From: a virus | IMG/VR virus record: IMGVR_UViG_3300045988_141150 | Reading direction: 5' to 3' (one strand) | Length of the DNA stretch: 64,000 nt | Shown here: piece by piece, positions 38,737 through 57,329 of the stretch | Layout: the number at the start of each line of letters is the position of its first letter | Numbering within the stretch: the stretch's first letter is position 1 | The notes under the pieces: model-generated | Databases searched by the model: none | What the model saw: the letters and a program-made list of their open reading frames with translations, nothing else | What the model was told of the DNA's origin: nothing | Made by a program: the position numbers and the translations under genes

Positions 38737-38771
38737 TATTCAATTTCTCCTTTTACTCATAAAACAAAAAT

Positions 38772-38804: not shown

Positions 38805-38822
38805 GGAATAATTTATATTAAA

Positions 38823-39929: not shown

Positions 39930-39946
39930 TATCCTTTTCTCCTTTC

Positions 39947-40864
39947 TTACTTAATACGCATTACCTTGACGCCCTTTTGACCATCAGGCATAGTATAAAC
40001 TTTAACAACCTGCCAGATCATTGAATCGTCACCAGTTTTGCTAAGAATACCCTTTGTAGCAGCAGAAGGAGAAAGTTTATCTCCAACAGCAAGAGTCTCT
40101 TCATTAATCATATTAGTAGTGTAAAGATCACCAATCATGGTCTTAAATACACGAGGAACCATAGAAGTGCCAGATTCCATGAACTTCTCATGATAGATAC
40201 CTAACTTATGATATGGATCATTGGTCCAATTTGCTTCATATATATCAGGAACATCAGTAAGAAGTTTATCATAGTAATACTTTACAGGAACATTAGCAAC
40301 CTGATGATTACTATCAAGAGTATATTCATTACCATCATAAGTAAACTTGCCAGTTTCATCAACATCATAAACACGGCCAGCAATAGTAACAGTCTTTAAA
40401 CCCTGATCAGCGGAAACGGTCTGATTGATCAATTTATAAGTTTGACCCTTATCATCAACGCCGTTCCAGAAACGACCACCATATTCAACCTCGGTATGCT
40501 CCCAATCATAAGGGCTATAAACACGAGCCTGATAGTCATCCTTAAGCATAGCAAATTCGCAATCCCACTGCTTACTGCCATCAGAATGATCACGATAAAG
40601 CTTAATCTCGTTATAAACGAGCATCCATTCACCTTCGCCAGTAAAGTTGACTTCGCCGATACCATTACCATTAGCAGCATAGTCATACTTTACAAACTGA
40701 CCGTTTTCAAGAATCTCAATGTCTTTATTGGCGGGAAGTTGAGCATAGATTTGAGCATTTCTTTGTGCGGAAAGGTGATTAGGCTCGACCTGACCGTAAC
40801 CAAACTCAACATACTTTGCCTGAGACTTAATAGGAAGATTCTTATTCAAAAAGTCTTTAAACAT
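39947..40864 (-). CDS. abundant head protein of unknown function (305 aa), TAG-free
   Basis: intact ORF between the scaffold and the capsid gene; higher GC. Confidence 0.4.
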   Translation of the reverse strand: MFKDFLNKNLPIKSQAKYVEFGYGQVEPNHLSAQRNAQIYAQLPANKDIEILENGQFVKYDYAANGNGIGEVNFTGEGEWMLVYNEIKLYRDHSDGSKQWDCEFAMLKDDYQARVYSPYDWEHTEVEYGGRFWNGVDDKGQTYKLINQTVSADQGLKTVTIAGRVYDVDETGKFTYDGNEYTLDSNHQVANVPVKYYYDKLLTDVPDIYEANWTNDPYHKLGIYHEKFMESGTSMVPRVFKTMIGDLYTTNMINEETLAVGDKLSPSAATKGILSKTGDDSMIWQVVKVYTMPDGQKGVKVMRIK

Positions 40865-40881
40865 TTAGTATGTCCTCCTTA

Positions 40882-42471
40882 TTAATTTTTGTTGGCGGTA
40901 GCAAAAGCCGCCTTCACCCAAGCGGGCATATCATCATCTTCTGAACCATTATTGTTCAAATTAAAAGTAGTAGCACCATTGGGCTTATTATTTTCGTCAA
41001 GGTCGAAACTCACCTTGTTGCGAACACAAATAACAGATAATTTAGCTTCAATATCATCAAGAGAATATTTATCAATATTTTTAACAACATCAGCCTTATC
41101 TTCATCAGAAAGCATATAGAATTTAGCAATCATATCTTCTTTATCTTTCTTCTCAGCAGCATTTTTAAATTCAGCAAGTGGAGCAATTTGCTCTTTCAAG
41201 CTATTATTTTCAGTTTCAAGAGCCGCGAATTTAGTCTGTAATTCATCATACTGAGCTTTAAGTTCAGTATATTCAACGACATCTTCAAGAGAATAATTTT
41301 TCTTTTTCTTTTTATCATCGTCATCATTCTCGCCTTTGTCGCCTTTGTCAGACTTATTAGAGGGTTCTCCATTATCAGGATTCTTCTTATTATCATTGCC
41401 CTCTGATTTATTATCAGGGTTTTGGCCATTAGATTTATTATTTTTGTCCTCTTCCTCAGCCTTTTTCTTTGAAGCATAATTAGTCTCAAAAGCTTCAATA
41501 TCAGCAAGAGCAAACTGAGGCTCTGCTGCCGGAGTATAAGACTTAGTTACTTCAGTTAAAGCGTCAGAAGGAACAAAGCCTTCTGCATCGGTAAGAGAAA
41601 AGTCCATGCGATAATATTTTTGATCTTGTCTATTTTGAAGAATAGCAAACTTTTGTCCAGCATCTTCATAAACGCCTTCAATGCGATAAATAGAACAATA
41701 ACTACTAGGCTCGCCAGGATACTTAGTCTCAATATAAGACCAGAGAGAATTCCACAAACTATCGCCAATTTCAACAGCATATTGTGTAAACACTTTGGGT
41801 CCTCCTTCTTTCATAAATTCTTTAAGTTCATTCATCATGGAGAACAAAGTGTTCTTAAAACCATCATCGAATGAAAAATTCACATTGATTTGGGAGCCTT
41901 CGAAACAAGGTTCATTTTCTTCTCCCAAAATACAAAGTTTAGAAATAATTGCCTTATTTATAATAAAAAACTAAGGCTTTCCATTACTATCTTTTGCCCA
42001 CGTAGCATTTAATGTTTTTTCATCAAGCTCCATAGAATGATTATTCCCTTTATCAACTACACGTTTACATTCAGGATACTAACCAGTCCACAAATAACCT
42101 TCAGTCATTAAATATTCACGTTCGACAACACCATCATCCAAAAATTTCTAGAACCAAACTTTAGCTCCAAGATCAACAAAACCATAAGGGCGAGTATTAT
42201 CTCTCATTCTAAATTCGCCATTAGATAATTCAATTATCCTATTATGTTCTTCAAAATCTTCGGTATTTTCGTTAAAAAAGCCAACAATAGGACTGCCTGG
42301 AAGACTATTAGCCATCTCAGTCGCTACATCTTTAGTGATTACGCTTTTATTACGATTAGGCTTATCATCTACATAGCAAACCTTAATTTGGCATTTAGAA
42401 ATTAAAGGATTTACAGGAGTTATATTTATAAACTCACAAGGTGTATTTAATTTAATACTTGTATGTTTCAT
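40882..42471 (-). CDS. scaffolding protein, possibly with an N-terminal protease-like domain (about 529 aa, 3 TAG in the N-terminal third)
   Basis: ATG at 42471 with GGAGG RBS; frame followed by hand through 3 TAGs into ORF 40882..41928; acidic, Lys/Asp/Glu-rich coiled-coil C-terminus typical of scaffolds. Confidence 0.45.
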
Positions 42472-42480
42472 AAATCCTCC

Positions 42481-44130
42481 TTATTTCATTGCTTCTTTAT
42501 TTTGAATAGTTTTTTCACTTTTCTAATCATCAGGTTTTTCCGGACGTCCTGCTTCGCCATTAGAAACTTTAGCAGTTCCAGAACCTGAGCTTCCTGAATT
42601 ATTTTGAGTTTTATTATTAGATGATGAACCTTTTAAACCCAAAATATCTTCACTACCCATAGTAGAACTCATAAGAGGAGGAATCATAATTTCACTTAAA
42701 TGTAAAATCTCATTTTCAAAATGAGCTGCATTAAGAATAAAACTCTATGAATGTCCAAGAGCAATCTAAGACAATAGTTTTGATTGTCCCATTTGCGCTT
42801 GTTCTTTATACATTTTAGAAAGTGTTTGATAATTATTCTGAGTAGTTTCTAATAAATAAAATCTAAAATTATATTTCTTATTACTACTCTTTTTTTCAAT
42901 AATTCTATTAAAGAATATATTAAACTATAAAATTAAACTTCTTATTGTAGATTCATCATTTAATACTGATTTTTCTAAAGCCATATTGCCATCAGTATTA
43001 AACAAATTCTATGAAATACCTAATGAATTATAAACACTACGTTCAACTTTAGCTAAATCATCTGTCGTTGTAGTAGTATTTTTATCAGACATATCAATAG
43101 AATCTACATCAGTAAATGTAGTTAAAACATCTACTCCAATAGCCCTCTATAACATCTAAACGGCATTATTATGGATATCTCTGGCTTCATCAACATCAAA
43201 TATCAAATCACCATTTTTATCCATTGGGAGCTTTTGGACTAAAATTTTAAGCAACTTCTACATTTGTTTCTTGCGGTCAAGATCTTGCGCTGCATCTAAA
43301 TCCATAATAGTAGGAATGGAATTTACAAAAATAGGAACATCACTATTATTAATATTAAATTTAATACAATTTTCTGGCTCAAGAACATACCAACTACCAG
43401 TATGCTAGCATCCAACCGCATCTTCTAAAGCAAGTTTTCCTTGCTTATATAAAACATAACCTTTAGCAAATTCTTCTGGGAATAATTTTAATACTTTTAA
43501 GCGATAATTCATATCTTTAAAAGTATCAAAAAATCGCATATCAAATTCGACAACTGGGATATTATTTACACTATAACGTGTTCTACAATATCTAACTGGC
43601 AATTCTTGTAAAATTAGATTTTTCTCTGAAGGAACTATATATCCATAATAGCATCCATTTTTAACAACTTGCAAAGCAATATCTCCACAAATCTTTTTAA
43701 TATAACTATTATCAAAATAATTCAACATTCTATAAAAATCTTTTAAAACTTTTTCTTCTTTTACATTATCATCATAAGTTTCGGCTGCAATATACCAATC
43801 ATAGCGGTATAAAAAAGCAACATAATTACAAACTCGTTGATATACACCACTTATATCATAATAAAAATTAGAAATGTATCGCAAAGTATTTAAATCTCTT
43901 TCTGCGAGTGCGCGAAGCACATCAGGTTTCGTAATAATACGATTTTGACCTGGGTATCTAATCTTACTATAATCACCAAGTTTTAAAATAGCATCATCTA
44001 AAGTTTTTGTGCCAACTTTTATTTTTCTATTGGCATAATCCGTAGCATCATTATAATTATATTCACAACGACCATTATAAATATCAAAACCTTTAGCATG
44101 AATCTAATCATTACGATCTTGCGTATCCAA
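42481..44130 (-). CDS. portal protein (about 549 aa, multiple TAG)
   Basis: TTG start with GGAGG RBS; frame followed by hand into ORF 43405..43920; TAA at about 42481; size and position between terminase and scaffold. Confidence 0.5.
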
Positions 44131-44143
44131 AGTTCCACCTCCT

Positions 44144-44500
44144 TTAATAACCTGCTAATTTCATTATATAATCATAAGAAATAAGGTTTTCGTCGGTATA
44201 TGGAATCTCTATTAATCTAAAATCATGTAAAGCGCAAAAACGTCTTTTTTGATTATCATTATATTGCTACTGGTATAAACCGCGTTTTCCGCCAAATTTA
44301 GAACTGGCTTCATAATGCTATTTTCCCTAATACTCAATAATGAAATCAATTTTTCCATCATCATCAAATATAACAAAATCAAAACGAAGCGGACGCCCGC
44401 TGGGGCTTTTTAAATCTGGAAAGATATATTCCATTTTAAAAGGTAGTCCTGCTTCTTCTAAGATTTCTTCAATTTTAATTTCTCCTCTTGAAGCACGCAT
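44144..44500 (-). CDS. small PD-(D/E)XK-type (Vsr/DUF559-like) nuclease-fold protein (about 118 aa, 3 TAG)
   Basis: ATG at 44500 with GGAGGG RBS; motif RFDFVIFDDDGKIDFIIEY*GK*HYE resembles the DUF559 core (vDF..iElDGgqH) when TAG is read as a sense codon; TAA stop. Confidence 0.35.
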
Positions 44501-44512
44501 TTTCCACCCTCC

Positions 44513-46066
44513 TTAATTTAAAAAGCACCAATCAGCTGCATTAAACTTTTTACGTTTTTTCTTTTTATCTTCTTCAAGTTTTAAATAATATAATCCATAT
44601 TCAAAAGCCGAAAATTTATCTTTACGAATTCCGCGATTTGCTTGTTTTAGAATAATATTAATACCTTCATTTTCTTCGCGTAAATTCATCATTTCTTCTT
44701 TTAATATGGAGGTTAAAGTAAATGGTTTTAAATAATCTGCCCTTTGTTCAGGAGTCATTTTTGAACCTTTTTGAGTAGCTAATAATTTTTCTTTAGCCGT
44801 TCTCTCATCTATTAAGAATTTTACCTTACCCGCTTGTAATTGAGTCTGAGCATTAGCATGACATTCAGTATTTATTGGAGCATTTGCTTTAATAACATAC
44901 ATAGCATCAAATTGAGTATTTGGTGTGCGATATTTTTTATAATATCCATCATCATCATTCTCAACGCCAAAATCAGGTAAAAATTCACCATCTTCATCAT
45001 TTTGAGATTTTACCATATAATCTAAAAGCCCAATACCTAAACCATTACCGTCTATAACTAAAGTTTTAGCTTTATATTTATAAAATAATTTCTTTAATTT
45101 AATAGCCTAATCTTCAAAATGATCATCTGACATAGTATACATATTTACTAATGATTTAATAGCTGGACCTTGAGCTTGTGGTGTTACTTTAAATACACAA
45201 ACTACTGAATCGCATCCCTTACGGCCTACATCTACAGAAAGCACATAATAAGCTTGCGCGCCCGCACGTCCAGAAGCTTCATACTCAGGCTATAATAATT
45301 TTCTATTTCTATCAAAATGCTCTCCATTAAAGAAAGCATCTTCAACAGTTCCTGACCACTTAGATTCATATTCACGCTCAAATGAGGCCTCGTTATAAGT
45401 TCCTTCATTCTTTTGGTCAGTAATAAATGTCTTACTTTGTAATCCTACCGCAACAGGAGTTCGCCATGTTCCGCCTAATACCATACAACGATCGGGCTAA
45501 GTTACCATACGAACTAAGAAACCAATAAGTCTATCATAAGGGAACGTGCCCTTATAACCAGCAGTAGTAATATAGATTTGTGATTTATTTAATGGCTCTT
45601 GCTCATTGGTAGTGCCATCTTTAGCTCTACGGGAAATTGCCATAACAGGAATAATAACTTCACGAAGGATGGCATCATCAATACCAACACACTCTTCCAT
45701 TAGTCCACCATGACGACGCTGACCACGAGTGCTTTCACGAGCTGCGAGGTTATCTAAAACTGAACCATTTTTAAATACATATCTAACTTTATCTTTTCCT
45801 TCAAGAGTTTTTCCTCGGCTCCAATCAATTTCTCGATTAAAACTTGGAATAAGTTCACATATTTCTTGAACTTTATCATGAAGAATACTAGCACCTTGTT
45901 CTTTACCTCCAGAAGTAACGAATAGATGCGCACCAGGATACAAAATACATCTAATCATTAATGCCATAACAGACAAAAATGATTTAGAATAAGCACGAGG
46001 AAAAACCGCGTAAACATACTAATAACGCATAACAGAACGGAGAAATACTCTCTAATAAAAATAAAA
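44513..46066 (-). CDS. terL: terminase large subunit (about 515 aa, at least 4 TAG)
   Basis: ORFs 45497..45976, 45290..45484 and 44513..45016 share one frame; ATPase-like N-terminal region and nuclease-like C-terminus; position upstream of the portal; TAA at 44513; start not resolved. Confidence 0.55.
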
Positions 46067-46251
46067 ATTAAATTCTCCATCTTTTATTTCAGTGCGTCTT
46101 CCTCGCACCATAAAATCTACAAATAAATCAGGATATTCTCTCCAAAAAGCAACGTATTTTCGGATGATGGGCATTACCGCCTCTACTCGCTCCGGTGATA
46201 AACCTATTTTTCTACGGCTATCACTTAACTACAGTAAATCTTGTAATGCCA

Positions 46252-47439
46252 TTATTTATTCAAACCCTATAAGAACTCATTATCTTGCGCGGACTCCTAT
46301 TCTTTAAATTCCTCAAAGTCCGCGTAATCACTATCTTTAATAGTTTTTTCAAGTTCTTCAATACTTAAATCAGCATCATCAACGATATCACTTTCCACGT
46401 TCTTTGCTTTCTCTTCATCTTCTTTAGCATTTTCGCGTAAAGCCTTTTCTACCATTGTGCTAATATTAGTTTCATCTTCAATAAGAGTGCGAGTATAACG
46501 TTGCATATCTTGAATAGTTAAATCCACTTTATCATGTGGCTATTCAACATAATATCTTTCAATATATCCTTCTTTTTCACACAATTCAATTAATTCACCA
46601 ATTGAATCAACAAATTCACCTGATTCTGCTTTATTTTGAGCAGCGGTAAATTTACCAGACTTCATTAAGCTATCGTATACTTTGCTCATCTTTTGGAAAC
46701 CTTCAATATCACCAATATCGATCAATTGATTTGCCTTTAAAGATGTCTTACATATTAATTTTAGCGTATCTTTGTGTCCGGCACCTTGAATATCATAAGA
46801 AGCCATCATTTCTTCATACAACTATTCAAGCTTAACCCATTCTTCAGGCTTATAAGTTTTGCCCCATTTAAGTCTTAAATAAGTGCGGTCTTCATCAGTT
46901 AAATCTAATTCTTGTTCCACTTCACCACTCTATTGTGCGAAATAATCTTCCGTAGGAGCATTAGGTGGTGGAGCATAAACCGGCTCTTTTAGTTCTCCTT
47001 CTGGAATAGCGATAGAACTTTTTTCAATAGCAGTTGCAATCTATTGAGCGTCATATCCTTGGCGTTTCATAGTTTGCTCTAATTTATTATTTGCCATCTA
47101 CTGTAAAAATTCTGTATCTTTCCAACGATAATCTTTAAACTATTTGAGTTTCATTTTTGACAAATAACGTCCAAGAATTGTCATACCGGTCATAGACTGC
47201 GGATCGCGCCCATATTTTTCCATTAATTTATTCCATTCGTCTGGGACATAAGGAACATCCGCTTCTTGTAAAATCCATAAATAAGTATCTGGATTCCAAT
47301 TATCGACGTGCATTGTCATACATTTTTTGCACACAGGGAATTTACCATCATTAGGATATTTTTCTAAATTATTAGATGAATAAAATTCCGTGCCATTCAT
47401 TGTGCGGTTACATTTTTCGCAATAATATGTTTCAGCCAT
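46252..47439 (-). CDS. hypothetical protein with N-terminal zinc ribbon (about 395 aa, about 9 TAG); possible small-terminase position
   Basis: ATG at 47439 with AGGAG RBS; CxxC..CxxC; frame followed by hand through ORFs 46540..46821 and 46297..46527 to TAA at about 46252. Confidence 0.35.
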
Positions 47440-47488
47440 AAATAAGATATTCTCCTTTCAATTATTTATTATAAACAAAAGGACAATA

Positions 47489-48544
47489 TTAAGATTTTTT
47501 GGCCTTAGAATTTCGACAACTTTTACAAATACTATAAAAGCCATCTTTACTTGTTTTATTTTTACTAAAATATTTATTGTGAGCTAATTTTATTTTGCCA
47601 CAACGACTACATTTTTTATATTTACCTTTTTCAACATTTAAATAATAATTATCTAAGTATTCATCTTCCGCAGTCGAAGCAATTAATTTTGGAATTTTAT
47701 TACGCCATAAACTTGAAATATATTCAAGGCTGTGCTTAATACCAAATTCCATTTGTATTTTCTCTTGAATGTCAATATTTTGTAAACCATCAATTTTATA
47801 TTCAACGATTCTATCATAAAGAGGATAATTAGCTAAAGCTTTATCACAAAGTTTATCAAAATCCTCCATTAAATACCATAAATCTTTATCATATTCGCCC
47901 CAACTATCTTGCTTTAATCGGGAATAATTACATAAAATCGCAGAACATATCTCAGGTCTTAATAAACTAATTCCATCAGGAATGGGAAAACCATCATCAT
48001 CAAAAATAAATGTTTCATCATCTAATGGAATATAAGACTTTGATCTGGTTAATTTTGTAGGCACTATTGGACGACGATAAGCATTTTTTATAACATACTA
48101 ATCTTTACGCATTTCAATAAGAGCCTTTTTAATAACAAAAGCATCTTTACCTTCTGTTACTTTTAATTTAGCCTCCCAAACATTAATGGCTTCTCTTAAC
48201 TAATTTAAACTTGGTATCTCTTCTAAATCTTTTTTTGTAATTGTAATATGTGGTTGAAATATTGTATTTCTATTATCTGTAATTAAATTATAAATTCCAT
48301 CTTCGCCATTTTCGAGTTGGGAAACAAGACCTTCAAAAGAAGTCTCACGTTTATTAACTGTAGCCATACGATTATCAGTTAATAATTTTTTCTCCTTTTT
48401 TTCTTGTTTCTCCATACAAAGAACCAAATAGTCTGCTAAAATTTCTAAATACTTTTCAGGCGGATCTGGATTATCAGCCAAAATTTGTTCGACTAATTGA
48501 TTTCTTTCTTCTGGAGTTTGTAAAGAATAATCAAGTTTTATCAT
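47489..48544 (-). CDS. first late-operon protein (351 aa if both TAG are read through; 114 aa if TAG terminates), C-terminal zinc ribbon
   Basis: ATG at 48544 with GGAGG RBS; TAG at codon 115 (48200) and a second TAG (48098); same frame continues into ORF 47489..48064; TAA stop. Confidence 0.5.
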
Positions 48545-48568
48545 TTTTTACCTCCAGTCTATGTTTAT

Positions 48569-48597
48569 ATTATACTCGAAAAAATTTTTTTTGTCAA
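48569..48597 (-). promoter_or_regulatory. sigma70/sigmaA consensus promoter for the late operon
   Basis: minus-strand TTGACA (48592-97), 17-nt spacer, TATAAT (48569-74), about 20 nt upstream of the RBS and ATG of gene 47489..48544. Confidence 0.55.
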
Positions 48598-48736: not shown

Positions 48737-49129
48737 ATGGAAATTATTTTTATTGTATTATTGAGTTGTGCGTTAGTAGTATCCCTCCTTTTTTTATGGT
48801 TATACAGAAAAGCCTTTTGGGTATTATACCAAAAAATGGCAAATCAGCAAAAAGAATTAAATAAATGGCCAATCGCGCAATATGAGTGTATGTTATTATT
48901 AAATATATTTTATAATTATGACTTTGAGGGAAGAGCAGTAGATTTTTCGCGATATGAAACGCAAGGACTAATTGTTTATAATTGTTTTCATGAAGCGAAA
49001 AATAGTCCAAAAGGAATTACAAATGATGGAATTGTTTCATCATTTTATAAACAAGCATTTGTATATGAATTAGATGATGGAACATTTGAATGGGAGGATA
49101 TTGAAAATGGGTCGGAACCAGCCTTTTGA
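48737..49129 (+). CDS. small membrane protein (131 aa)
   Basis: ATG with AAAGGAG RBS; N-terminal transmembrane helix; standard code; AT-rich. Confidence 0.55.
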   Translation: MEIIFIVLLSCALVVSLLFLWLYRKAFWVLYQKMANQQKELNKWPIAQYECMLLLNIFYNYDFEGRAVDFSRYETQGLIVYNCFHEAKNSPKGITNDGIVSSFYKQAFVYELDDGTFEWEDIENGSEPAF

Positions 49130-49502
49130 AGTAAGAGGAATAGATGCGGTAATATTTAGATTAGAACAAGAATATTCTAACGCAACAAGAGATAAAGATC
49201 CTTTTGTAAGAGATTGGAAATTATTTAAAACAATACGTATTGAGAAAAAGGATAATGGGTCAAGAACAATTACTTACAGACCTTTATCAGACGCGGAAAA
49301 GGCTCAATTAAGCACCAAAGAAGAACAAGAAGAATATCAGTTAAACAAATACAAATATGTATTAGAGCACTTAATGGAAAAATATGATATAAATACTATT
49401 AATAGATATATTGATAGTTGTAAATATAAAGATAAATTAATTGAATATATTGAGAAAAAATTAAATGCGGAAACCACTCAGCCCTTTGAAGGCAATTGCT
49501 AA
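49107..49502 (+). CDS. hypothetical protein (131 aa)
   Basis: ATG at 49107 with GGAGG RBS; overlaps the end of the upstream gene. Confidence 0.5.
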   Translation: MGRNQPFEVRGIDAVIFRLEQEYSNATRDKDPFVRDWKLFKTIRIEKKDNGSRTITYRPLSDAEKAQLSTKEEQEEYQLNKYKYVLEHLMEKYDINTINRYIDSCKYKDKLIEYIEKKLNAETTQPFEGNC

Positions 49503-49596
49503 AAAGTGTCAGCAGAAAGTCACTTATTCTGTTACTTCTGGATTATACACTCTTATGCAGGGTGAGAAACCTAAAAGAGGTAGAAAAAAGAAATCA

Positions 49597-49707
49597 TGAT
49601 TTGAAATTAAAAATTGATTTGTTGTTTTAACCGTATTCTGAAATTGAAAATTGATTTAGATAAATTTAAATTATTCTTCGTGATTTGAAATTGAAAATTG
49701 ATTTAGA
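49597..49707. repeat. three iteron-like direct repeats (tgatttgaaattgaaaattgattt), spaced about 42-45 bp apart
   Basis: copies at about 49597, 49637 and 49682 in the non-coding stretch where GC content switches. Confidence 0.6.
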
Positions 49708-49739
49708 TTGCGTTTTGACCACGCAAAAGGAAAAACACA

Positions 49740-50079
49740 AATAAAAAAAAATTTTTTCCCGAAATACACCCCCGCCCTATAAGGTTCTAACTTGTTTATT
49801 CTCTGAGAGTATACCAGCCTTACTCTCGCTCTTTTGCGGAACGCAAGACCCCATCCCGCATAAATGCCCCGGTAAACGTTGCTCGGCTCGCTGGCGGTAG
49901 TGGCGAGCCGAGTTTTATAAAAATCAGCAGTTTGCACAAATTTCTCGCCGAAACTTCGTCATAATGCACAAACATCAAAATGCCCGAAACTACGCCATCA
50001 CATTTGGGTAAAATGACTATTGACAATCCAGTAGCCATGTGCTATACTTGTATCATCAAAAAGAAAGAGGTAAATCAAA
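49740..50079 (+). repeat. partial, diverged copy of the early intergenic cassette (TTTTTTCCC box, GC hairpin, GCACAAA box, promoter)
   Basis: hairpin gctcggctcgc..gcgagccgag (49881-49913) followed by gagtttt; ttgcacaaattt box; ttttttccc at 49751. Confidence 0.4.
50020..50048 (+). promoter_or_regulatory. consensus promoter
   Basis: TTGACA-17-TATACT with TG extension (tgtgcTATACT). Confidence 0.55.
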
Positions 50080-50445
50080 ATGAAGAACATTTCCAAAATC
50101 ATCACCATGGCCATTGCTATCATTCTCTCCGTGTCTTTCTTTGGCCCGTTCCACGACCACACAACCGCGGAAGCCTGTGAGGAAGCGCCCCAGTCCTACG
50201 ACCTCTCGGTCATTGAGAATTGGTGCGGTTCAGGCACGGAGCGCGGAAGTATCCGTTTCGTCGGCGCAGAGGTCTATGAGCGCGAGGGCGATACACTGAC
50301 GCTCATTGATGAGCAAGGCAATCTGTGGGACGTGGAAGCACTCAACATTGATGACAACGACTTCTTGCTCTTGTGGATTAACGACAATGACACTGACACT
50401 GTGGAAGATGATACAATCATTAAGGTATGGAGAGAGGCTTACTAA
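50080..50445 (+). CDS. secreted or membrane-anchored protein with an N-terminal signal peptide (121 aa)
   Basis: RBS AAGAGG; hydrophobic N-terminus MKNISKIITMAIAIILSVSFF; acidic. Confidence 0.55.
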   Translation: MKNISKIITMAIAIILSVSFFGPFHDHTTAEACEEAPQSYDLSVIENWCGSGTERGSIRFVGAEVYEREGDTLTLIDEQGNLWDVEALNIDDNDFLLLWINDNDTDTVEDDTIIKVWREAY

Positions 50446-50476
50446 GTCTCTCTCTTTCTTGCGGATCGGCGAAGAT

Positions 50477-50494
50477 TGTTAAAAAATTAACAAG
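50477..50494. promoter_or_regulatory. perfect 18-bp palindrome TTGTTAAAAAATTAACAA (candidate operator or activator site)
   Basis: centre lies 29.5 bp upstream of the -35 box at 50515; identical copy at 50899 with identical spacing. Confidence 0.45.
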
Positions 50495-50514
50495 CAAAGA
50501 AGAGTAAAAAACTC

Positions 50515-50543
50515 TTGACAAATGCGCAATGATGTGCTACAAT
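50515..50543 (+). promoter_or_regulatory. consensus promoter
   Basis: TTGACA-17-TACAAT (tgtgcTACAAT). Confidence 0.55.
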
Positions 50544-50573
50544 GTAGATACAATAAGAAAGGGGAATACTCAG

Positions 50574-50864
50574 ATGACTAATAAGAATTTTTATAATGCT
50601 CTCAAAGCAGAAAAGGAACGGTTGATGAACGAAAGCAAGCAGGCATCCCGCGACTGCCAGATTAAGCATGGTGAGATGTCAAAGGCATGGAACATTGTCA
50701 ATGCCCTTGAAAGCTTGGGTAAGTTTGGCACGCAGGAACTCAGCAACGCGTATGATAACTATGAGGAAGCCAGCTACGCAAGTATGTTAGCAGACAACCA
50801 CTTCGATGACATTGATGAAGCCATTGATAAGATAAATGGATTGATGGGTCTTTACGAAGAATAA
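50574..50864 (+). CDS. small acidic protein (96 aa)
   Basis: ATG with AAAGGGG RBS; TAA stop. Confidence 0.55.
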   Translation: MTNKNFYNALKAEKERLMNESKQASRDCQIKHGEMSKAWNIVNALESLGKFGTQELSNAYDNYEEASYASMLADNHFDDIDEAIDKINGLMGLYEE

Positions 50865-50888
50865 GGGAGCAGTAATGCTCCCTTTCTA
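50865..50888 (+). terminator. rho-independent terminator
   Basis: gggagc-agtaat-gctccc then ttt. Confidence 0.5.
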
Positions 50889-50898
50889 ACGGCGTAGA

Positions 50899-50916
50899 TT
50901 GTTAAAAAATTAACAA
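50899..50916. promoter_or_regulatory. second copy of the palindrome TTGTTAAAAAATTAACAA
   Basis: identical sequence; centre 29.5 bp upstream of the -35 box at 50937. Confidence 0.45.
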
Positions 50917-50936
50917 AGATTTTTCTCAAAAAGGTC

Positions 50937-50970
50937 TTGACAAATCAGTTAGAATGTGGTATTCTATAAT
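50937..50970 (+). promoter_or_regulatory. consensus promoter
   Basis: TTGACA-17-TATTCT overlapping TATAAT. Confidence 0.5.
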
Positions 50971-50994
50971 CACAAAGGGAAAGGGGAAAGAAAA

Positions 50995-51204
50995 ATGATT
51001 TATGGCATTGTTTATTATACTAAGGGCGGTCAGGGCTATCTCTTCCAGCAAGCGTTCGAAGAACAGCGCGCTATGGAGATTGCAGGTAAGATGAACGACT
51101 TACTCGCGACAGGTGCTACGATGTATAATGATAAGTCCTATGGCAAGCTCGACTTGCGGAACGTTGAGTATTTCACAGTTGAACCCAGTAGCGAAATGTA
51201 TTAA
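50995..51204 (+). CDS. small protein (69 aa)
   Basis: RBS AAAGGGGAAAG; TAA stop. Confidence 0.5.
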   Translation: MIYGIVYYTKGGQGYLFQQAFEEQRAMEIAGKMNDLLATGATMYNDKSYGKLDLRNVEYFTVEPSSEMY

Positions 51205-51208
51205 GGGC

Positions 51209-51236
51209 GGGAGCGGGCTCCCCGCTCTTTCTCTTG
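51209..51236 (+). terminator. rho-independent terminator
   Basis: gagcggg-ctcc-ccgctc followed by tttctctt. Confidence 0.5.
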
Positions 51237-51327
51237 CGCCGTGGGGCGCGTGTAGAGCGTCCCAGCCCGAACTTTATCACAGTAAAGCATTAAAGCAAAA
51301 TTTTTTCCATTTTTTGCCAAAAACCAC

Positions 51328-51356
51328 TTGACATTCCTATCCCGAAATGCTATAAT
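51328..51356 (+). promoter_or_regulatory. consensus promoter
   Basis: TTGACA-17-TATAAT (tgcTATAAT). Confidence 0.55.
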
Positions 51357-51389
51357 AGTATCATCAAAAGAAAGAAAGAGGTAAATCAA

Positions 51390-51512
51390 ATGTCTATTCA
51401 CGATGGTCTTGTTCTTCTCGCTATCTATGTTGGTGTTATCGGCGCGGGCGCGCTCATCGAATACGTGGAGCACCGCGTAAAGAGAGCGGTTCATCGCAGA
51501 AAGAGAAGTTGA
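51390..51512 (+). CDS. hydrophobic micro-protein (40 aa, single transmembrane helix with basic tail)
   Basis: RBS AAGAGG; MSIHDGLVLLAIYVGVIGAGALIEYVEHRVKRAVHRRKRS; below the ORF-track size cut-off. Confidence 0.4.
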   Translation: MSIHDGLVLLAIYVGVIGAGALIEYVEHRVKRAVHRRKRS

Positions 51513-51530
51513 AAAACTTCTCTTTTTTTA
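51502..51530 (+). terminator. rho-independent terminator
   Basis: agagaagtt-gaaaa-aacttctct then T7. Confidence 0.5.
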
Positions 51531-51540
51531 TAAAAAACAC

Positions 51541-51574
51541 TTGACAAATCCAACAGCCGGTGCTATACTATAAT
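51541..51574 (+). promoter_or_regulatory. consensus promoter driving a transcript of about 140 nt with no convincing ORF
   Basis: TTGACA-17-TATACT/TATAAT; transcript begins tTGTCAAGAGGGG. Confidence 0.5.
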
Positions 51575-51726
51575 TGTCAAGAGGGGAAGAGATAAGTTAC
51601 TTCCCAAAGGGTGTGTGGCAAGTAGCCATTTCCTTTGATAAAACGCTTAGTTGGAGCGACCAGACAGGGCGCGCACTGTCCGCAAAAGTAGAGAATAAAA
51701 AAATTCCAACTTCTCAAAAAAACCTC

Positions 51727-51755
51727 TTGACAGACCCCTTAGAGTGTGATACAAT
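51727..51755 (+). promoter_or_regulatory. consensus promoter flanked by the 9-bp inverted repeat CTCTTGACA ... TGTCAAGAG
   Basis: cCTCTTGACAgacccc..TACAAT..aTGTCAAGAGg. Confidence 0.5.
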
Positions 51756-51759
51756 AAGG

Positions 51760-51813
51760 ATGTCAAGAGGCAGACAGGAGCGAACAACCTCTCCCCAATG
51801 CGTAGTTGGGTGA
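51760..51813 (+). CDS. leaderless micro-ORF MSRGRQERTTSPQCVVG (17 aa)
   Basis: ATG 5 nt after the -10 box with no RBS; one of a family beginning MS(R/G)G. Confidence 0.25.
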   Translation: MSRGRQERTTSPQCVVG

Positions 51814-51859
51814 AGTAAAACAAAATCTCCCTACCGAACAAAAAAGTTCAAAAAACCTC

Positions 51860-51888
51860 TTGACAAACCCCTTAGAGTGTGATACAAT
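51860..51888 (+). promoter_or_regulatory. consensus promoter driving the tRNA-like RNA
   Basis: cCTCTTGACAaacccc-17-TACAAT. Confidence 0.5.
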
Positions 51889-51900
51889 AAGGGTACAGAT

Positions 51901-52012
51901 GGCGGTGAGGTAGAACGGTTCTACTTCCACAAAGATGGCTGAGATACAAAAGTGTCGCTCACTTGGAAACGTTCGCTATTGGAAAATGTGGGTTCAACTC
52001 CCACCACCGCCT
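51901..52012 (+). ncRNA. tRNA-like small RNA (about 112 nt): 7-bp acceptor stem, D-arm with GG, canonical TTCAACT T-arm, but an aberrant 34-nt anticodon region
   Basis: ggcggtg pairs with caccgcc; D-arm gtag-aacggtt-ctac; T-arm gtggg-ttcaact-cccac; own promoter; no ORF; stem ttcca/tggaa (25-29 with 64-68) encloses 34 nt; no CTA triplet in the loop. Confidence 0.35.
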
Positions 52013-52032
52013 CAAAATTTTTTGAAAAAACA

Positions 52033-52061
52033 CTTGACAAATCCAAAAGTAGATGTTATAA
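52033..52061 (+). promoter_or_regulatory. consensus promoter
   Basis: TTGACA-17-TATAAT (tgtTATAAT). Confidence 0.55.
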
Positions 52062-52093
52062 TGTAGATACAATAAGAAAGGGGATAAAAACCA

Positions 52094-52356
52094 TGACTAC
52101 TTACAACATTCTCACTATTGGCCCTTCTCGTGAACCGAAGCTCGCGGGCAAGTTCAACGTTGCGGATACTGAAAACTTCCTTGACCGGTTAGAGGAAACG
52201 CTCTACATTCTCTTTGAATTAGAGCCGAAATCCCGCGAATGGAAACGCGAATTTCTCAAACATCTTTTTGCGGAATTCACTTATCACTTTTGCGAAGATT
52301 CCCGCGTTGAAAAGCAAGGCAACAATATTATCGTTTATGAAGAAAATGAGGGCTGA
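52094..52356 (+). CDS. hypothetical protein (87 aa)
   Basis: RBS AAAGGGG; TGA stop. Confidence 0.55.
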
Positions 52357-52375
52357 AAAAGCCCTCATTTTTTTT
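52348..52375 (+). terminator. rho-independent terminator
   Basis: gagggct-gaaaaa-gccctc then T8. Confidence 0.55.
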
Positions 52376-52396
52376 CAAACTTTTTTCAAAAAACTA

Positions 52397-52428
52397 TTGA
52401 CATTTACTGCCCTAAGTGGTATTATAAT
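52397..52428 (+). promoter_or_regulatory. consensus promoter
   Basis: TTGACA-17-TATTAT/TATAAT. Confidence 0.55.
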
Positions 52429-52472
52429 ATCAGAAAGGGAAAGGAAAATCCCGAACACCAGAAAGGTTAGCT

Positions 52473-52664
52473 ATGGATACTTTCGAAATGTATTACGAGA
52501 AATTCATGAAGATGCGCAAGGCTGACATTATTCGCGAGGGTCAGACTTGGGATATTTGGGCAAACTGCCAAAGCACTGCCGATAGCCTGATGAAGTGGAC
52601 AAAGCCCGTTCTTGCGAGAGTTCTTGCTGGACGCCTGGACCGTTTGGAAAAGCGGGGCTACTAA
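52473..52664 (+). CDS. hypothetical protein (63 aa)
   Basis: RBS AAAGG; TAA stop. Confidence 0.5.
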   Translation: MDTFEMYYEKFMKMRKADIIREGQTWDIWANCQSTADSLMKWTKPVLARVLAGRLDRLEKRGY

Positions 52665-52680
52665 GCCCCGCTTCTTTCTT
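52650..52680 (+). terminator. rho-independent terminator
   Basis: aagcggggc-tacta-gccccgctt then ctttctt. Confidence 0.5.
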
Positions 52681-52691
52681 GAAAAAAGTTC

Positions 52692-52720
52692 TTGACAAAT
52701 CTCGAATCTATGGTATAATA
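52692..52720 (+). promoter_or_regulatory. consensus promoter
   Basis: TTGACA-17-(tgg)TATAAT. Confidence 0.55.
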
Positions 52721-52749
52721 AGAGTATAAAAGGAAAGGGGATAAACAAA

Positions 52750-52989
52750 ATGACTTTGGACATGATTAAAAATGTAATTGGCACGGTAAAAGGCGCGCTG
52801 ATGTTCTATGAGGGGAATGGCGTCGAAGTGATAAACGAAAACACTTGCGGTCGCTATCTCAAAGACCGCAAAGGTCGCATGACTTTGAATGGTGATGTGT
52901 TAGACGCAAGCGAAGAGTGGGTGCTGGGATTGCCGGTCAGCGATTTGAAAGCCAGAGATAACGTTCTCATTATTTATGTTGATGGCTAA
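52750..52989 (+). CDS. hypothetical protein (79 aa)
   Basis: RBS AAAGGGG; TAA stop. Confidence 0.5.
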   Translation: MTLDMIKNVIGTVKGALMFYEGNGVEVINENTCGRYLKDRKGRMTLNGDVLDASEEWVLGLPVSDLKARDNVLIIYVDG

Positions 52990-53004
52990 AATTAAATTTT
53001 TTGA

Positions 53005-53250
53005 ATTAAAAATCTCCCCAAAAATGGGGAGATTTTTTTGTACATTTTATCTATTGACAATCCCAAAACTTCATGGTATAATCGGCCGGCGCGCGAACGG
53101 ACCTGGCGCGCCGAGTTTTTGTCAATAGGCGGGTTGCACAAATTTTTGGGGCAAATCTTTGTGCATAATGTCAATAGACAGAATCCCGAATTGGTGCTAT
53201 ACTATAATCACAGTAAGGGAAGGAAAACCTACCAAACCGGAAAGGGATAA
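53005..53250 (+). repeat. early intergenic cassette, short type: terminator, promoter P1, GC hairpin plus T-tract, GCACAAA box, promoter P2
   Basis: terminator 53009-53040; P1 TTGACA 53045 with TATAAT 53068; hairpin cggcgcgc..gcgcgccg 53078-53104 then agttttt; P2 TAGACA-17-TATACT 53166-53194. Confidence 0.6.
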
Positions 53251-53254
53251 CAAC

Positions 53255-53563
53255 ATGATTAACATTCGTTCTATTCTCAAACTCGCTGAAAATGACGGTC
53301 TGACCCTCAAACATGGCAAGAAGGTCAATTACAAGTCCGGCTGGCAGGTCGCCACTAATGGCGTTGAATGTAAGACCGCCCGCGAAGCCATTAACGCGGT
53401 CAAGGAATATGGCGGCAACTGCGGCGTGTGGTTTGCGAACGGCATTTATTATGTTGACAAGTCCAAGAGGGTGCAGACCAAGAAGCAGGCGCTTGAAATC
53501 GGCAAGGCGTGCAACCAAATCAGTGTATATGGCTGGGCGCGCGGCAATCTGGCTTACTGCTAA
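53255..53563 (+). CDS. hypothetical protein (102 aa)
   Basis: true start at the internal ATG 53255 with AAAGGGA RBS; TAA stop. Confidence 0.5.
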   Translation: MINIRSILKLAENDGLTLKHGKKVNYKSGWQVATNGVECKTAREAINAVKEYGGNCGVWFANGIYYVDKSKRVQTKKQALEIGKACNQISVYGWARGNLAYC

Positions 53564-53573
53564 AAAATTAAAT

Positions 53574-53609
53574 AGAGGGCTTGACAAAACAAGCCCTCTA
53601 TGCTATAAT
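53574..53609 (+). promoter_or_regulatory. promoter whose -35 box sits in the loop of a 7-bp hairpin (agagggc-TTGACAAAACAA-gccctct)
   Basis: TTGACA 53581-86, 17-nt spacer, TATAAT 53604-09. Confidence 0.5.
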
Positions 53610-53641
53610 AAAGGCACAATAAAGGAAAGGGAGAAAACAAC

Positions 53642-53911
53642 ATGGAAATTAAATATGCTCACGAAATGGCGGCTATCGCTAAGGACATCCGCACCGCCAA
53701 GCGCGCCAAAGATACTGCTACGGCCCGCGCCTATCTTGAAGAAAACCTGATGAAAGATATTGAAGACCACGCGGAAAAAGGCGAGAATTATCTGTCTCGC
53801 TGTCTCGTTGCCATTGAAGATGAAGCCGTGAAAGAAGCCTTAAAAAATCTTTTGCGGAATTATGGCTATACAACTTCTTATTCAAACGGCGTTCTCACCG
53901 TAAGGTGGTAA
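53642..53911 (+). CDS. hypothetical protein (89 aa)
   Basis: RBS AAAGGGAG; TAA stop. Confidence 0.55.
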   Translation: MEIKYAHEMAAIAKDIRTAKRAKDTATARAYLEENLMKDIEDHAEKGENYLSRCLVAIEDEAVKEALKNLLRNYGYTTSYSNGVLTVRW

Positions 53912-53916
53912 GGTAA

Positions 53917-53946
53917 AAGAGGGAAAATTTTTCCCTCTTTTTCTAA
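53917..53946 (+). terminator. rho-independent terminator
   Basis: agagggaaaa-ttttt-ccctcttt then ttc. Confidence 0.5.
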
Positions 53947-53954
53947 AAAACTTC

Positions 53955-53983
53955 TTGACAAATCCAAAAGCAGATGTTATAAT
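53955..53983 (+). promoter_or_regulatory. consensus promoter
   Basis: TTGACA-17-TATAAT. Confidence 0.55.
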
Positions 53984-54015
53984 AAAAGCACAATAAAGGA
54001 AAGGGGAATAAATTA

Positions 54016-54087
54016 ATGGAATGTCCTTATTGCGATGGAAAGTGCGGAACACATGCTCAATGCGTTAAATGCGGAAAAGGGAAATAA
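54016..54087 (+). CDS. zinc-ribbon micro-protein MECPYCDGKCGTHAQCVKCGKGK (23 aa)
   Basis: RBS AAGGAAAGGGG; four Cys arranged as CxxC..CxxC; overlaps the RBS of the next gene. Confidence 0.35.
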   Translation: MECPYCDGKCGTHAQCVKCGKGK

Positions 54088-54089
54088 AA

Positions 54090-54446
54090 ATGGGAACGGA
54101 ATTCTTAATTATTGGCGGAATTTTTAGCGCAGTCCTTGCGCTGTTTGTCTGCCTTGTCTGTTGGTGCCGCATGGAAAAGTCTCACCCAATAGTCAGATTG
54201 TTAGTTGGTATCCTTATTTCGTGCGCCATCGGTTATGGCATGACGGGCGCGTTAGTCGCAGAACATAATGCCGATAGAAAAGCATGGAACAACGGCTATT
54301 GCTCCATTTGCGGAAATGAAATGGAATTTGTAAATGCTTCTCATGGTCGGCATGGAACAGTTTATTACTATTGGTATTGCGATGAGTGCGGTCATACGTT
54401 AGAGTTAACTTCTAACTTTGCAAAGGGGGAAACAGATAATGAATGA
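54090..54446 (+). CDS. membrane protein with two transmembrane helices and a C-terminal zinc ribbon (118 aa)
   Basis: internal ATG 54090 with GGGAAATAAAA RBS; CSICGN..CDECGH. Confidence 0.5.
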   Translation: MGTEFLIIGGIFSAVLALFVCLVCWCRMEKSHPIVRLLVGILISCAIGYGMTGALVAEHNADRKAWNNGYCSICGNEMEFVNASHGRHGTVYYYWYCDECGHTLELTSNFAKGETDNE

Positions 54447-54645
54447 AAAAACTATCCCACAGGCTTTGAGAGAACAGGCAGACGCCATTGAAAAGTTAGC
54501 TCAAAGAATTGCGAAAGAAAGCAAGGAATTTCCAGACGAGGAAGACCGCAGAGACGGCGGAGAACTTGCGGACGCTTTATTTGCGATTCAATCAAAGCTC
54601 CGCTATGAGTACTCTTGGATTGCGGAAACCATGTGGGACGTGTAA
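54439..54645 (+). CDS. small acidic protein (68 aa)
   Basis: ATG 54439 overlaps the upstream gene by 8 nt (operon); TAA stop. Confidence 0.5.
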   Translation: MNEKTIPQALREQADAIEKLAQRIAKESKEFPDEEDRRDGGELADALFAIQSKLRYEYSWIAETMWDV

Positions 54646-54646
54646 T

Positions 54647-54688
54647 TTTCAGGCGAGATTTAATTATCTCGCCTGAAAATTTTTTTCA
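54647..54688 (+). terminator. rho-independent terminator
   Basis: ttttcaggcgagat..atctcgcctgaaaa then T7. Confidence 0.55.
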
Positions 54689-54729
54689 AAAAACTATTGA
54701 CAAACTCACCCCGTTGTGGTATTATAATC

Positions 54730-54798
54730 ATGTCAAGAGGAAGTGGTAAGCCTCTTGAAGTAGTGAACAAATTTCTCATACTATGGTTTGCGCGGTAG
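54730..54798 (+). CDS. leaderless micro-ORF MSRGSGKPLEVVNKFLILWFAR (22 aa) that ends in TAG
   Basis: ATG immediately after the -10 box; one of only two early-region reading frames terminated by TAG. Confidence 0.25.
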   Translation: MSRGSGKPLEVVNKFLILWFAR

Positions 54799-54830
54799 CC
54801 GATAATTACCGCGCCCTTTCTATTTCATTT

Positions 54831-54848
54831 TTGTTAAAATTTTAACAA
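54831..54848. promoter_or_regulatory. third palindrome TTGTTAAAATTTTAACAA (variant of the 50477 and 50899 site)
   Basis: perfect 18-bp palindrome; same half-site TTGTTAAAA. Confidence 0.35.
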
Positions 54849-54893
54849 TGATTGTTCGGCCGGGCGCGCACGGACCACGCGCCCGGAATTTCA

Positions 54894-54922
54894 ATTATAT
54901 CACAGGGCCAGCAATTTGTCAA
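54894..54922 (-). promoter_or_regulatory. reverse-strand consensus promoter firing leftward into the GC hairpin
   Basis: plus strand reads ATTATA-17-TGTCAA, which is TTGACA-17-TATAAT on the minus strand; the only minus-strand signals in a plus-strand region. Confidence 0.5.
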
Positions 54923-55048
54923 GCAAAAAGTCGCGAAAATTTGCATAAATTATTTTTCCCAATTTTGTGCGATCCGTCAATAGACAAATCTCTAAGAGTG
55001 TGTTATATTATAATTGTTCCAAGGGAACAGAAAGATGAGGTAAATAAA

Positions 55049-55255
55049 ATGACTAACTACAACATTCACTCTTTTATCAAGACCCAGCTTCTCCATGCCG
55101 AGCAGATGCCCAGCGATGCCGAACTTTTCAAGCATAACGCCTATGGCGCAGTCTCGTGGGAGTTATATCGCACGAATGACCATGCCCTTGAAGAACAGTG
55201 GGCAAATGTATATGCTCCCAAGTTCGACGCCATCATCAGAAATTATCATTTCTGA
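55049..55255 (+). CDS. hypothetical protein (68 aa)
   Basis: internal ATG 55049 with GAGG RBS; TGA stop. Confidence 0.5.
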   Translation: MTNYNIHSFIKTQLLHAEQMPSDAELFKHNAYGAVSWELYRTNDHALEEQWANVYAPKFDAIIRNYHF

Positions 55256-55261
55256 TAAAAA

Positions 55262-55296
55262 GGGCTTGACAAAAGCCCTTTCGCATGATATAATAC
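55262..55296 (+). promoter_or_regulatory. promoter with its -35 box in a hairpin loop (aagggc-TTGACAAA-gccctt)
   Basis: TTGACA 55268-73, 17-nt spacer, TATAAT 55291-96. Confidence 0.5.
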
Positions 55297-55324
55297 ATAT
55301 ACAATCAAGAAAGAGGTAAAACAA

Positions 55325-55663
55325 ATGCTTATCAAAATGTCAAAACACGCCACGCAAGACCGCATTGACCGCCTGCTCTTCATCTACGATAATGTAGGAA
55401 TCGGCGAACCGTATATCGACAGTGTTGAGGACGATGTTCTCTACACTATCACTACAACAGGTATTCTTCTTGTTCGTAGTGCTAAGGACGGAACACTCAT
55501 TACAGCCTATATCGCGGATATTGATAAAATCACCGCAATATGGAGAAATAAGCACGGCGAGCGCCCTATGCCTGATAACCTTTACAAGCGGGTTCTCGCA
55601 AACGCGTTCTTTGATAGAATGTGGAATAAGCAAGAAAAGGAGAAAAAGAAAAATGTTCGGTAA
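55325..55663 (+). CDS. hypothetical protein (112 aa)
   Basis: RBS AAGAGG; TAA stop; first gene of a 3-gene operon. Confidence 0.55.
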   Translation: MLIKMSKHATQDRIDRLLFIYDNVGIGEPYIDSVEDDVLYTITTTGILLVRSAKDGTLITAYIADIDKITAIWRNKHGERPMPDNLYKRVLANAFFDRMWNKQEKEKKKNVR

Positions 55664-56006
55664 GAAAAAGAAGCCTTTCAATCCATATGAAAAACGCGCG
55701 GACGATGCGCTTTATGAAGTATGGGAAACGCGCGACCGCCTTTATGAAAAGACAAGGCAAGTCATTACGCGCGTAGGGGTGATTAACCTTTACCCCAATG
55801 GCGCTGACCGCGAGAAAGCCGTCTCTGACGCCGAAGAAGCGAAGCACGCTTTGCTTGTAGCTATTGGAGCATACGACACCGCGCGCATGGAATACAATGA
55901 TTATGTTGAAAAAAACGCGGAAAAGTTTGACAACCATAAAGAAAAATGGACTACCACGAGCCATGAAATTATCGAATGGGCTTACAAATACTATTATAAA
56001 GGGTGA
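55653..56006 (+). CDS. hypothetical protein (117 aa)
   Basis: internal ATG 55653 with AAGGAG RBS; overlaps the upstream gene by 11 nt. Confidence 0.5.
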   Translation: MFGKKKKPFNPYEKRADDALYEVWETRDRLYEKTRQVITRVGVINLYPNGADREKAVSDAEEAKHALLVAIGAYDTARMEYNDYVEKNAEKFDNHKEKWTTTSHEIIEWAYKYYYKG

Positions 56007-56011
56007 ATAAA

Positions 56012-56245: not shown

Positions 56246-56358
56246 TAAAACCGGACTTTGTCCGCGTTTCTCTCCCCCTTTCCTATGGCTTTGGCGGTTG
56301 TACCCCAAAAAACAACCGCCACCCTTTCCAAAAAATAAATTGAATGGAGATAAAAAAG

Positions 56359-57256: not shown

Positions 57257-57271
57257 ATTAAAAACTCTCTA

Positions 57272-57306: not shown

Positions 57307-57329
57307 AGAAAAAGGAAAGGGTGATAATA

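Follow-up and report, generated by a model that had tools for sequence, protein, structure and literature searches.

The two in-frame TAG codons of gene 47489..48544 are, with high probability, ordinary glutamine codons of a phage that uses genetic code 15, and the recoding covers the whole late block. The DNA analysed here, which we call the window (64,000 nucleotides, from IMG/VR record IMGVR_UViG_3300045988_141150), comes from a large phage of the SPbeta/EF1-like group that has Firmicutes-type hosts and a code 15 (TAG→Gln) late module. For annotation this means that the window needs translation table 15; with table 11 almost all structural genes fall into fragments. In biological terms the window adds one more amber→Gln late module, in a large lineage with Firmicutes-type hosts and close standard-code sisters. 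Code 15 recoding of phage late modules is already known, and so are its block-wise layout, its standard-code relatives and the hypothesis on timing. Three small points go beyond the literature consulted, namely an ancestral host-type promoter on the packaging and head operon, abundant capsid-type genes that are free of TAG, and a suppressor tRNA that was not found in the regions examined. They leave the general picture unchanged.

TAG as a glutamine codon in one gene and across the late block

The gene lies on the minus strand and runs from an ATG at 48544 to a TAA at 47491-47489; with TAG read as glutamine it encodes a protein of 351 amino acids. The ribosome-binding site, GGAGG at 48551..48555, is located 6 nt 5' of the ATG inside a conserved GACTGGAGG motif and begins 13 nt past the -10 element of the promoter. 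The two TAGs are codon 115 (48200..48202) and codon 149 (48098..48100). A preliminary description of this DNA had given these positions together with the coordinates of the promoter and a C-terminal CxxC..CxxC ribbon, and all of them are as it stated. It had also noted that the full-length product needs decoding of TAG, and this holds. Its count of 191 more codons after the second TAG has to be corrected, as 202 codons follow before the TAA. Under code 11 the gene reads as two open reading frames of 114 and 191 amino acids, and the second of these, which begins at an internal GTG, is where the figure of 191 belongs.

A profile search with the read-through product returns a single match to phrog_5767 (amino acids 31-347, E 9e-55) that extends across both TAGs. 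The family has 6887 homologs in a large protein database, and of these the best 120 listed have, with few exceptions, a length of about 350 amino acids. Full-length orthologs from standard-code Enterococcus phages (41-42% identity) are uninterrupted reading frames. Among 100 homologs, Q149 is conserved in at least 90%, invariant residues are found on either side of the TAGs, and purifying selection is clear across them. The stretches that span the TAG-encoded glutamines are PSLNQLREAINVWEAK and KDQYVIK. The preliminary description had raised the possibility of two independent genes with a functional start site between the TAGs. This was examined and is excluded by the one profile match that bridges the TAGs and by the uninterrupted standard-code orthologs. 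Sequencing errors are likewise out, since the two positions are TAG in 35 and 38 related contigs, respectively. Judged from these comparisons, 47489..48544 is shown to be one gene for one predicted protein of 351 amino acids.

For the identity of the encoded amino acid we collected 81 related loci and took the codons at the aligned columns straight from their nucleotide sequences. In these loci and the window together, the column of codon 115 holds CAA or CAG 47 times and TAG 35 times, and that of codon 149 holds CAA or CAG 44 times and TAG 38 times; nothing else occurs in either. Further TAG columns in the relatives are mostly glutamine columns too. Some database proteins had evidently been called with code 15 (P0004, for instance, fails to translate to itself under table 11), and we therefore checked a cultured standard-code relative, Enterococcus phage VRE9_3. 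Its ortholog, 42% identical over the full length, has glutamine at both aligned positions. Both TAGs are one transition away from CAG and lie at conserved glutamine positions, that of codon 149 being nearly invariant in the family. At the level of aligned codons, TAG is thus shown to stand for glutamine in the late block of this phage. Proof of TAG→Gln by proteomics has been reported for crAss-like phages only (PMC9523058).

The recoding is centred on the structural genes, and the early genes are compatible with the host code. The late block (1..48544, minus strand) comprises 29 genes with about 230 in-frame TAGs at a GC content of 30%; its products include a YonG-like protein, the large terminase, an HNH endonuclease, the portal, YonD-like and YonB-like head proteins, virion structural proteins and tail proteins. 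The early block (48991..64000, plus strand, GC 42%) consists of small genes with their own consensus promoters; its plus-strand genes have no in-frame or terminal TAG, and it gives the same reading under either code. The longest stop-to-stop reading frame of the window grows from 556 amino acids under code 11 to 2761 when TAG is taken as a sense codon. Reading TGA or TAA as sense instead extends it only to 577 and 591, and recoding of these codons can be dismissed. One reading frame of 2752 amino acids holds 80 TAGs and another of 2582 amino acids holds 26. TAG terminates no predicted gene in the window and is never a stop in the late genes, many of which have in-frame TAGs although their homologs run uninterrupted. 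The 29 curated late genes contain 230 TAG, 375 CAA and 56 CAG, so that TAG makes up 35% of the glutamine-type codons. In gene calls based on ribosome-binding sites, 216 TAGs fall in 14,359 late codons (late codons number about 14,400-14,900 overall) and four in 2,950 early codons, all four in doubtful reading frames on the minus strand or with a TTG start. The difference between late and early is highly significant (Fisher p about 1e-16), and no plus-strand early gene contains an in-frame TAG or ends in one, over roughly 2,600-2,950 early-block codons.

The split between the blocks is sharp in composition as well. The late block has 30.3% GC and prefers CAA over CAG (375 to 56), whereas the early block has 42.3% GC and uses CAG slightly more than CAA (42 to 30). 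TAG is spread unevenly over the late genes. Several genes for capsid-type or other virion structural proteins are free of it (38823-39929, 39947-40864, 33875-34858, 35608-36189, 38143-38736 and 9757-11418) with 5-17 glutamine codons each, and several of these are significantly depleted of TAG; genes 20105-23503, 32597-33622 and 23619-31877 are significantly enriched. Such a pattern suggests that TAG is selected against in the proteins with the highest expression. An HNH or homing-endonuclease gene with three TAGs (44144-44500, minus strand) lies between the terminase and portal genes; the terminase match of Enterococcus phages EF1 and EF5 is broken into pieces at the equivalent place by an HNH gene.

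The promoter, the operon and the 351-amino-acid protein

The promoter of the gene (48569..48597, minus strand) is a sigma-A/sigma-70 consensus with the -35 element TTGACA at 48597-48592, a 17-nt A/T-tract spacer and the -10 element TATAAT at 48574-48569; an extended -10 (TGn) is absent. The host-type consensus TTGACA-17-TATAAT reported in the preliminary description is thereby confirmed. Perfect TTGACA-N16-18-TATAAT sites occur 21 times in the window against an expectation of 0.11, 20 of them in the early region and one at 48569..48597, and the promoter is therefore more than a chance occurrence. On the coding strand, no other perfect site is found in the late block, and between 31 and 48.6 kb it alone matches there at 12 of 12 positions. 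Of 80 relatives, 77 have a promoter with at most two mismatches 23-30 nt 5' of the start codon and also keep the A/T-tract spacer and the GACTGGAGG motif. A perfect copy of TTGACA-17-TATAAT also precedes the ortholog of the standard-code phage VRE9_3, and hence the promoter is ancestral and independent of the recoding.

Downstream of the gene, the apparent transcription unit continues through 33653..47488 on the minus strand, with genes for a YonG-like protein, the large terminase, the HNH endonuclease, the portal, a YonD-like protein, a YonB-like capsid protein and virion proteins. Since the first strong minus-strand terminator lies at 33684-33653, the packaging and head genes, about 15 kb in all, make up a single apparent unit, and the earlier placement of the gene at the head of a structural operon is borne out. 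Two strong intrinsic terminators are present inside the late block in all (33653-33684 and 31922-31957, minus strand). No high-scoring promoter is among those listed between the terminator at 33684-33653 and the next gene at 33622, and the tail genes further downstream would therefore depend on read-through or antitermination.

In the early region, between 51328 and 63656, mostly on the plus strand, twenty perfect TTGACA-N16-18-TATAAT promoters are packed into about 12 kb (some 0.1 would be expected for the whole window), and 17 of them have an extended -10 (TGn), as read by eye from the listed sequences. Each fronts a small gene, usually with a hairpin terminator behind it. Such cassettes of promoter, gene and terminator are swapped in and out even between relatives that are about 90% identical in the flanking DNA.

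The 351-amino-acid protein belongs to PHROG 5767, which is annotated 'sigma factor'. Its helical domain (amino acids 190-305; 47630..47977, minus strand) has a helix-turn-helix like that of sigma region 4 or LuxR, and a fold resembling region 4 of the sigma-70 family is thus present in the protein. A zinc ribbon forms the C-terminus (47516..47611, minus strand; strands at 309-340 in the model), with the pairs C312-x2-C315 and C340-x2-C343. In 100 homologs C312, C315 and C343 are invariant and C340 is conserved in at least 90%. The ribbon has weak PHROG matches to the zinc-ribbon regions of HNH and endonuclease VII proteins. Sigma region 2, the domain for core polymerase binding and for recognition of the -10 element, was not detected in the protein, and Pfam and NCBIfam gave no match for it or for any of 100 family members scanned singly. 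As no sigma region 2 is detected, we do not file the protein as a sigma factor; the PHROG label is only half supported, by the sigma-4-like fold but not by a sigma-2 domain. The most conserved motif of the family, NRMATVNKRETSFEGLVSQLENGEDG at amino acids 56-81 (48302-48379), contains many invariant residues. AlphaFold gives a pLDDT below 50 for amino acids 52-73, which cover most of this motif, and only about 50 for the rest. The segment may be one that binds a partner. The gene has a conserved place directly 5' of the YonG-like and terminase genes, and this synteny is compatible with a role in transcription and, equally well, with one in DNA packaging.

These features allow a reading in which the TAGs of this gene matter through its product. 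The sigma-4-like zinc-ribbon protein would be a late activator, sigma factor or antiterminator, and its gating by TAG would create a feed-forward timer. The label of PHROG 5767 would fit, as would the position of the gene as the first of an operon with a constitutive-looking promoter. The terminator at 33684-33653, after which no high-scoring promoter is listed before the next gene, fits control by read-through. Further, none of the recoded relatives lacks a TAG in this gene; however, one TAG or more is expected from drift alone because the gene has 12 glutamine-type codons and the TAG share is 35%. Neither a sigma-2 domain nor a Pfam or NCBIfam sigma signal is seen across the 100 family members, the gene is co-transcribed with its supposed targets, and the neighbourhood of the terminase genes would suit a packaging protein just as well. 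We consider such a timer unlikely, with a small chance left to it. The fuller proposal, that the protein is the sigma-like or antiterminator-like late-transcription factor of the SPbeta/EF1-like clade and that its TAGs tie late transcription to a code change made without a canonical suppressor tRNA, none having been detected in about two thirds of the genome, is quite improbable in our view. If it were true, late transcription and not only late translation would depend on the code change in the recoded lineage.

TAG positions among the relatives

The preliminary description had proposed a built-in translational switch, in which TAG115 would be a regulated stop that yields a functional 114-amino-acid protein early and the 351-amino-acid fusion late. 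Before a code change, the N-terminal fragment of 114 amino acids would indeed be the default product of a strong host-type promoter, and it would include the most conserved motif of the family. The comparison with relatives speaks strongly against this gene-specific, programmed read-through. Among 67 recoded relatives the first TAG is at codon 9, 16, 20, 76, 93, 97, 114, 115, 149 or 244, and the predicted truncated product would span anything from 8 to 243 amino acids. The number of TAGs per ortholog ranges from 0 to 6. As number and position both vary, a 114-amino-acid isoform is not conserved. The gene is also not enriched in TAG, with two of its 12 glutamine-type codons (a share of 0.17) against a block average of 0.35, and TAG recurs about 230 times over the late genes. 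Standard-code relatives have no TAG here and would make the full-length protein only. In all, 13 orthologs lack TAG; the 12 relatives among them that could be assessed are also practically free of TAG over the following 9 kb and are standard-code sisters with 72-79% protein identity. A fixed stop position and context and a conserved short product, the marks of programmed read-through, are not found. The comparison leaves a switch specific to this gene largely refuted and, to our judgement, very improbable.

Known cases of read-through look different. In the Qbeta A1 protein and in retroviral gag-pol, a single stop with a fixed position and a conserved context yields two products, both functional, in a defined ratio. 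The likeness is that the long product requires decoding of an in-frame stop codon; here, in contrast, the reassignment extends through the whole late module, the positions of the codon drift, and there is no conserved short isoform.

The weakest reading takes the TAGs as genuine stops between independent or decaying reading frames, or as products of misassembly, and although the two separate code 11 frames of 114 and 191 amino acids would suit it, its chance is negligible and sequence comparison has already refuted it, with TAGs that recur in 35-38 related contigs, purifying selection and invariant residues on both sides of them, one profile match that bridges both, and the consequence that all large late genes would need to be pseudogenes.

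The standard-code sisters bear on the age of the code change. IMG/VR contigs L062-L074, which are 72-74% identical in the 351-amino-acid protein, are standard-code sisters inside the clade that also holds the TAG-recoded lineages, and sisters of this type have about 0-1 TAG per 1000 codons downstream versus about 10 in the recoded lineages. Since such sisters occur inside the same clade, the code change is evolutionarily recent here, as has likewise been reported for Agate phages (Borges et al.).

Decoding of TAG, its proposed timing and known systems

The search for the factor that would change the code was extended outward from either end of the window; ARAGORN covered the window plus about 150 loci, and Rfam covered it plus 23 loci. 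ARAGORN and Rfam found no canonical tRNA in the 64-kb window. None was present within 10 kb on either side of the 351-amino-acid gene in 55 relatives, nor, by ARAGORN, Rfam or both, in loci that tile 65.0-188.5 kb (about 64%) of the 194-kb close relative IMGVR_UViG_3300045988_118866. Suppressors are detectable in only about 40% of TAG-recoded genomes (published surveys; Borges et al.).

The early region does encode a tRNA-like RNA with its own promoter (51901-52012, plus strand), which matches Rfam RF00005 with 37 bits against a gathering score of 29. It also occurs in L199 (469-492) and L260 (1881-2000). The 7-bp acceptor stem, the D-arm and the T-arm are intact, and an irregular hairpin of about 50 nt takes the place of the anticodon loop; ARAGORN misses the element even with introns allowed. 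The second known copy differs by a single substitution, which strengthens the predicted extended helix, where G-C replaces a G.U pair, and takes away the only CTA. Lacking an anticodon loop and having lost its only CTA in that copy, the element was rejected as an amber suppressor. By BLAST it is absent from the roughly 200 loci searched and was found in one IMG/VR contig and in one 164-kb contig of a metagenome-assembled genome (MAG); it is strain-specific and rare. The latter contig (L260, CAMELE010000001.1, 163,874 bp) has the same cassette of early promoter and tRNA-like RNA and belongs to the bin of a MAG named 'uncultured Mollicutes bacterium'. Co-binning of a phage genome with the MAG is the probable explanation, and the binning may be a weak clue to the host. 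Directly 5' of the tRNA-like RNA, at 51541-51890 on the plus strand, are two more short and apparently non-coding units, each with a consensus-like promoter. One of these promoter sequences (CCTCTTGACA...GATACAAT) is present twice, and Rfam gave no match for the units.

Recoding has been proposed, as a genome-wide hypothesis, to delay late proteins until the code changes (Borges et al.). Following this proposal, a TAG-based delay of late proteins is plausible here. Early in infection the host machinery would stop at TAG. A code-change factor made by the phage, normally a suppressor tRNA-Gln with anticodon CUA, would then accumulate until TAG is read as glutamine, and most late proteins, the 351-amino-acid protein included, would be full-length only later in infection. 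Host RNA polymerase would transcribe the packaging and head operon from the conserved sigma-A promoter. Because this promoter looks constitutive to the host polymerase, the translational gate may matter for timing. With the packaging and head operon behind a conserved host-type promoter, transcription alone may not make the operon 'late', and the published idea of translational gating is given something concrete to act on. The gate would act on the whole late module and not on gene 47489..48544 in particular. Thus, the translational gating of late expression that the preliminary description had suggested survives as a plausible and already published genome-wide idea (Borges et al.), but not as a local device. 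Any gating must be incomplete at the protein level, given that TAG is missing from several abundant structural genes.

The contigs of relatives reach about 195 kb, and the neighbouring genes match Pfam YonG_N, YonD_N and YonB. The terminase is 45-47% identical to those of Enterococcus phages EF1, H1 and VRE9, of Geobacillus phage E3 and of the code 15 phage Phass-1. A Firmicutes-type host is likely because of the sigma-A promoter, the strong Shine-Dalgarno sequences and the hosts of the relatives (Enterococcus, Bacillus, Clostridioides and Brevibacillus). Stop-codon recoding in phages with genetic code 15 (TAG→Gln) is said to have been described by Ivanova in 2014, and NCBI taxonomy includes a 'Caudoviricetes code 15 clade'. 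Phage clades with this code are the crAss-like, Lak, Garnet, Amethyst, Jade, Sapphire and Agate phages (Borges et al. 2021/2022; Peters et al. 2022), and block-wise dual coding in phages is described in the Mgcod paper. The window resembles code 15 phages in that in-frame TAG aligns with glutamine, TAG is not a terminator and GC is low. It also shares with them the confinement of recoding to the structural, late module, with early genes readable in the standard code, and the standard-code sister lineages within the same clade. A difference is that the examined part of the genome yielded neither a suppressor tRNA nor a release factor or tRNA synthetase. The late operon has a perfect host sigma-A promoter here, whereas neither 'promoter' nor 'sigma' appears as a word in the Borges preprint.

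Phass-1 (OQ749652), a distant relative, is a gut phage of 136 kb with TAG→Gln recoding, in which 28% of the reading frames are interrupted by TAG and 36 tRNA genes include three tRNA-Sup(CTA) (Babkin et al. 2023, PMC10607447). The ViPTree analysis in the same work includes Enterococcus phage EF1, and EF1 carries an ortholog of the 351-amino-acid gene. Phass-1 and the window have TAG→Gln recoding in common, and their terminases are 45% identical. Unlike Phass-1 with its three tRNA-Sup(CTA), the window and its relatives gave none in the regions examined. No ortholog of the 351-amino-acid protein lies within 9 kb of the Phass-1 terminase, and Phass-1 was therefore set aside as a close model in spite of the related terminase.

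Orthologs of the gene in standard-code phages occur in Enterococcus phages VRE9_1 to VRE9_4, EF1, EF5 and H1, in Brevibacillus phage Sundance, in Geobacillus phage E3 and in phiCD211, and their annotations vary between sigma factor, LuxR family and response regulator. The Enterococcus phage orthologs belong to the same family over the full length, at the 41-42% identity given above, and the similarity is weaker in the other standard-code phages. In VRE9_3, whose locus we examined, the gene likewise lies 5' of the genes for the YonG-like protein and the terminase, and its promoter is the same perfect TTGACA-17-TATAAT. What distinguishes the standard-code orthologs is the codon itself: CAA or CAG stands there where TAG stands here, and their genomes are not recoded.
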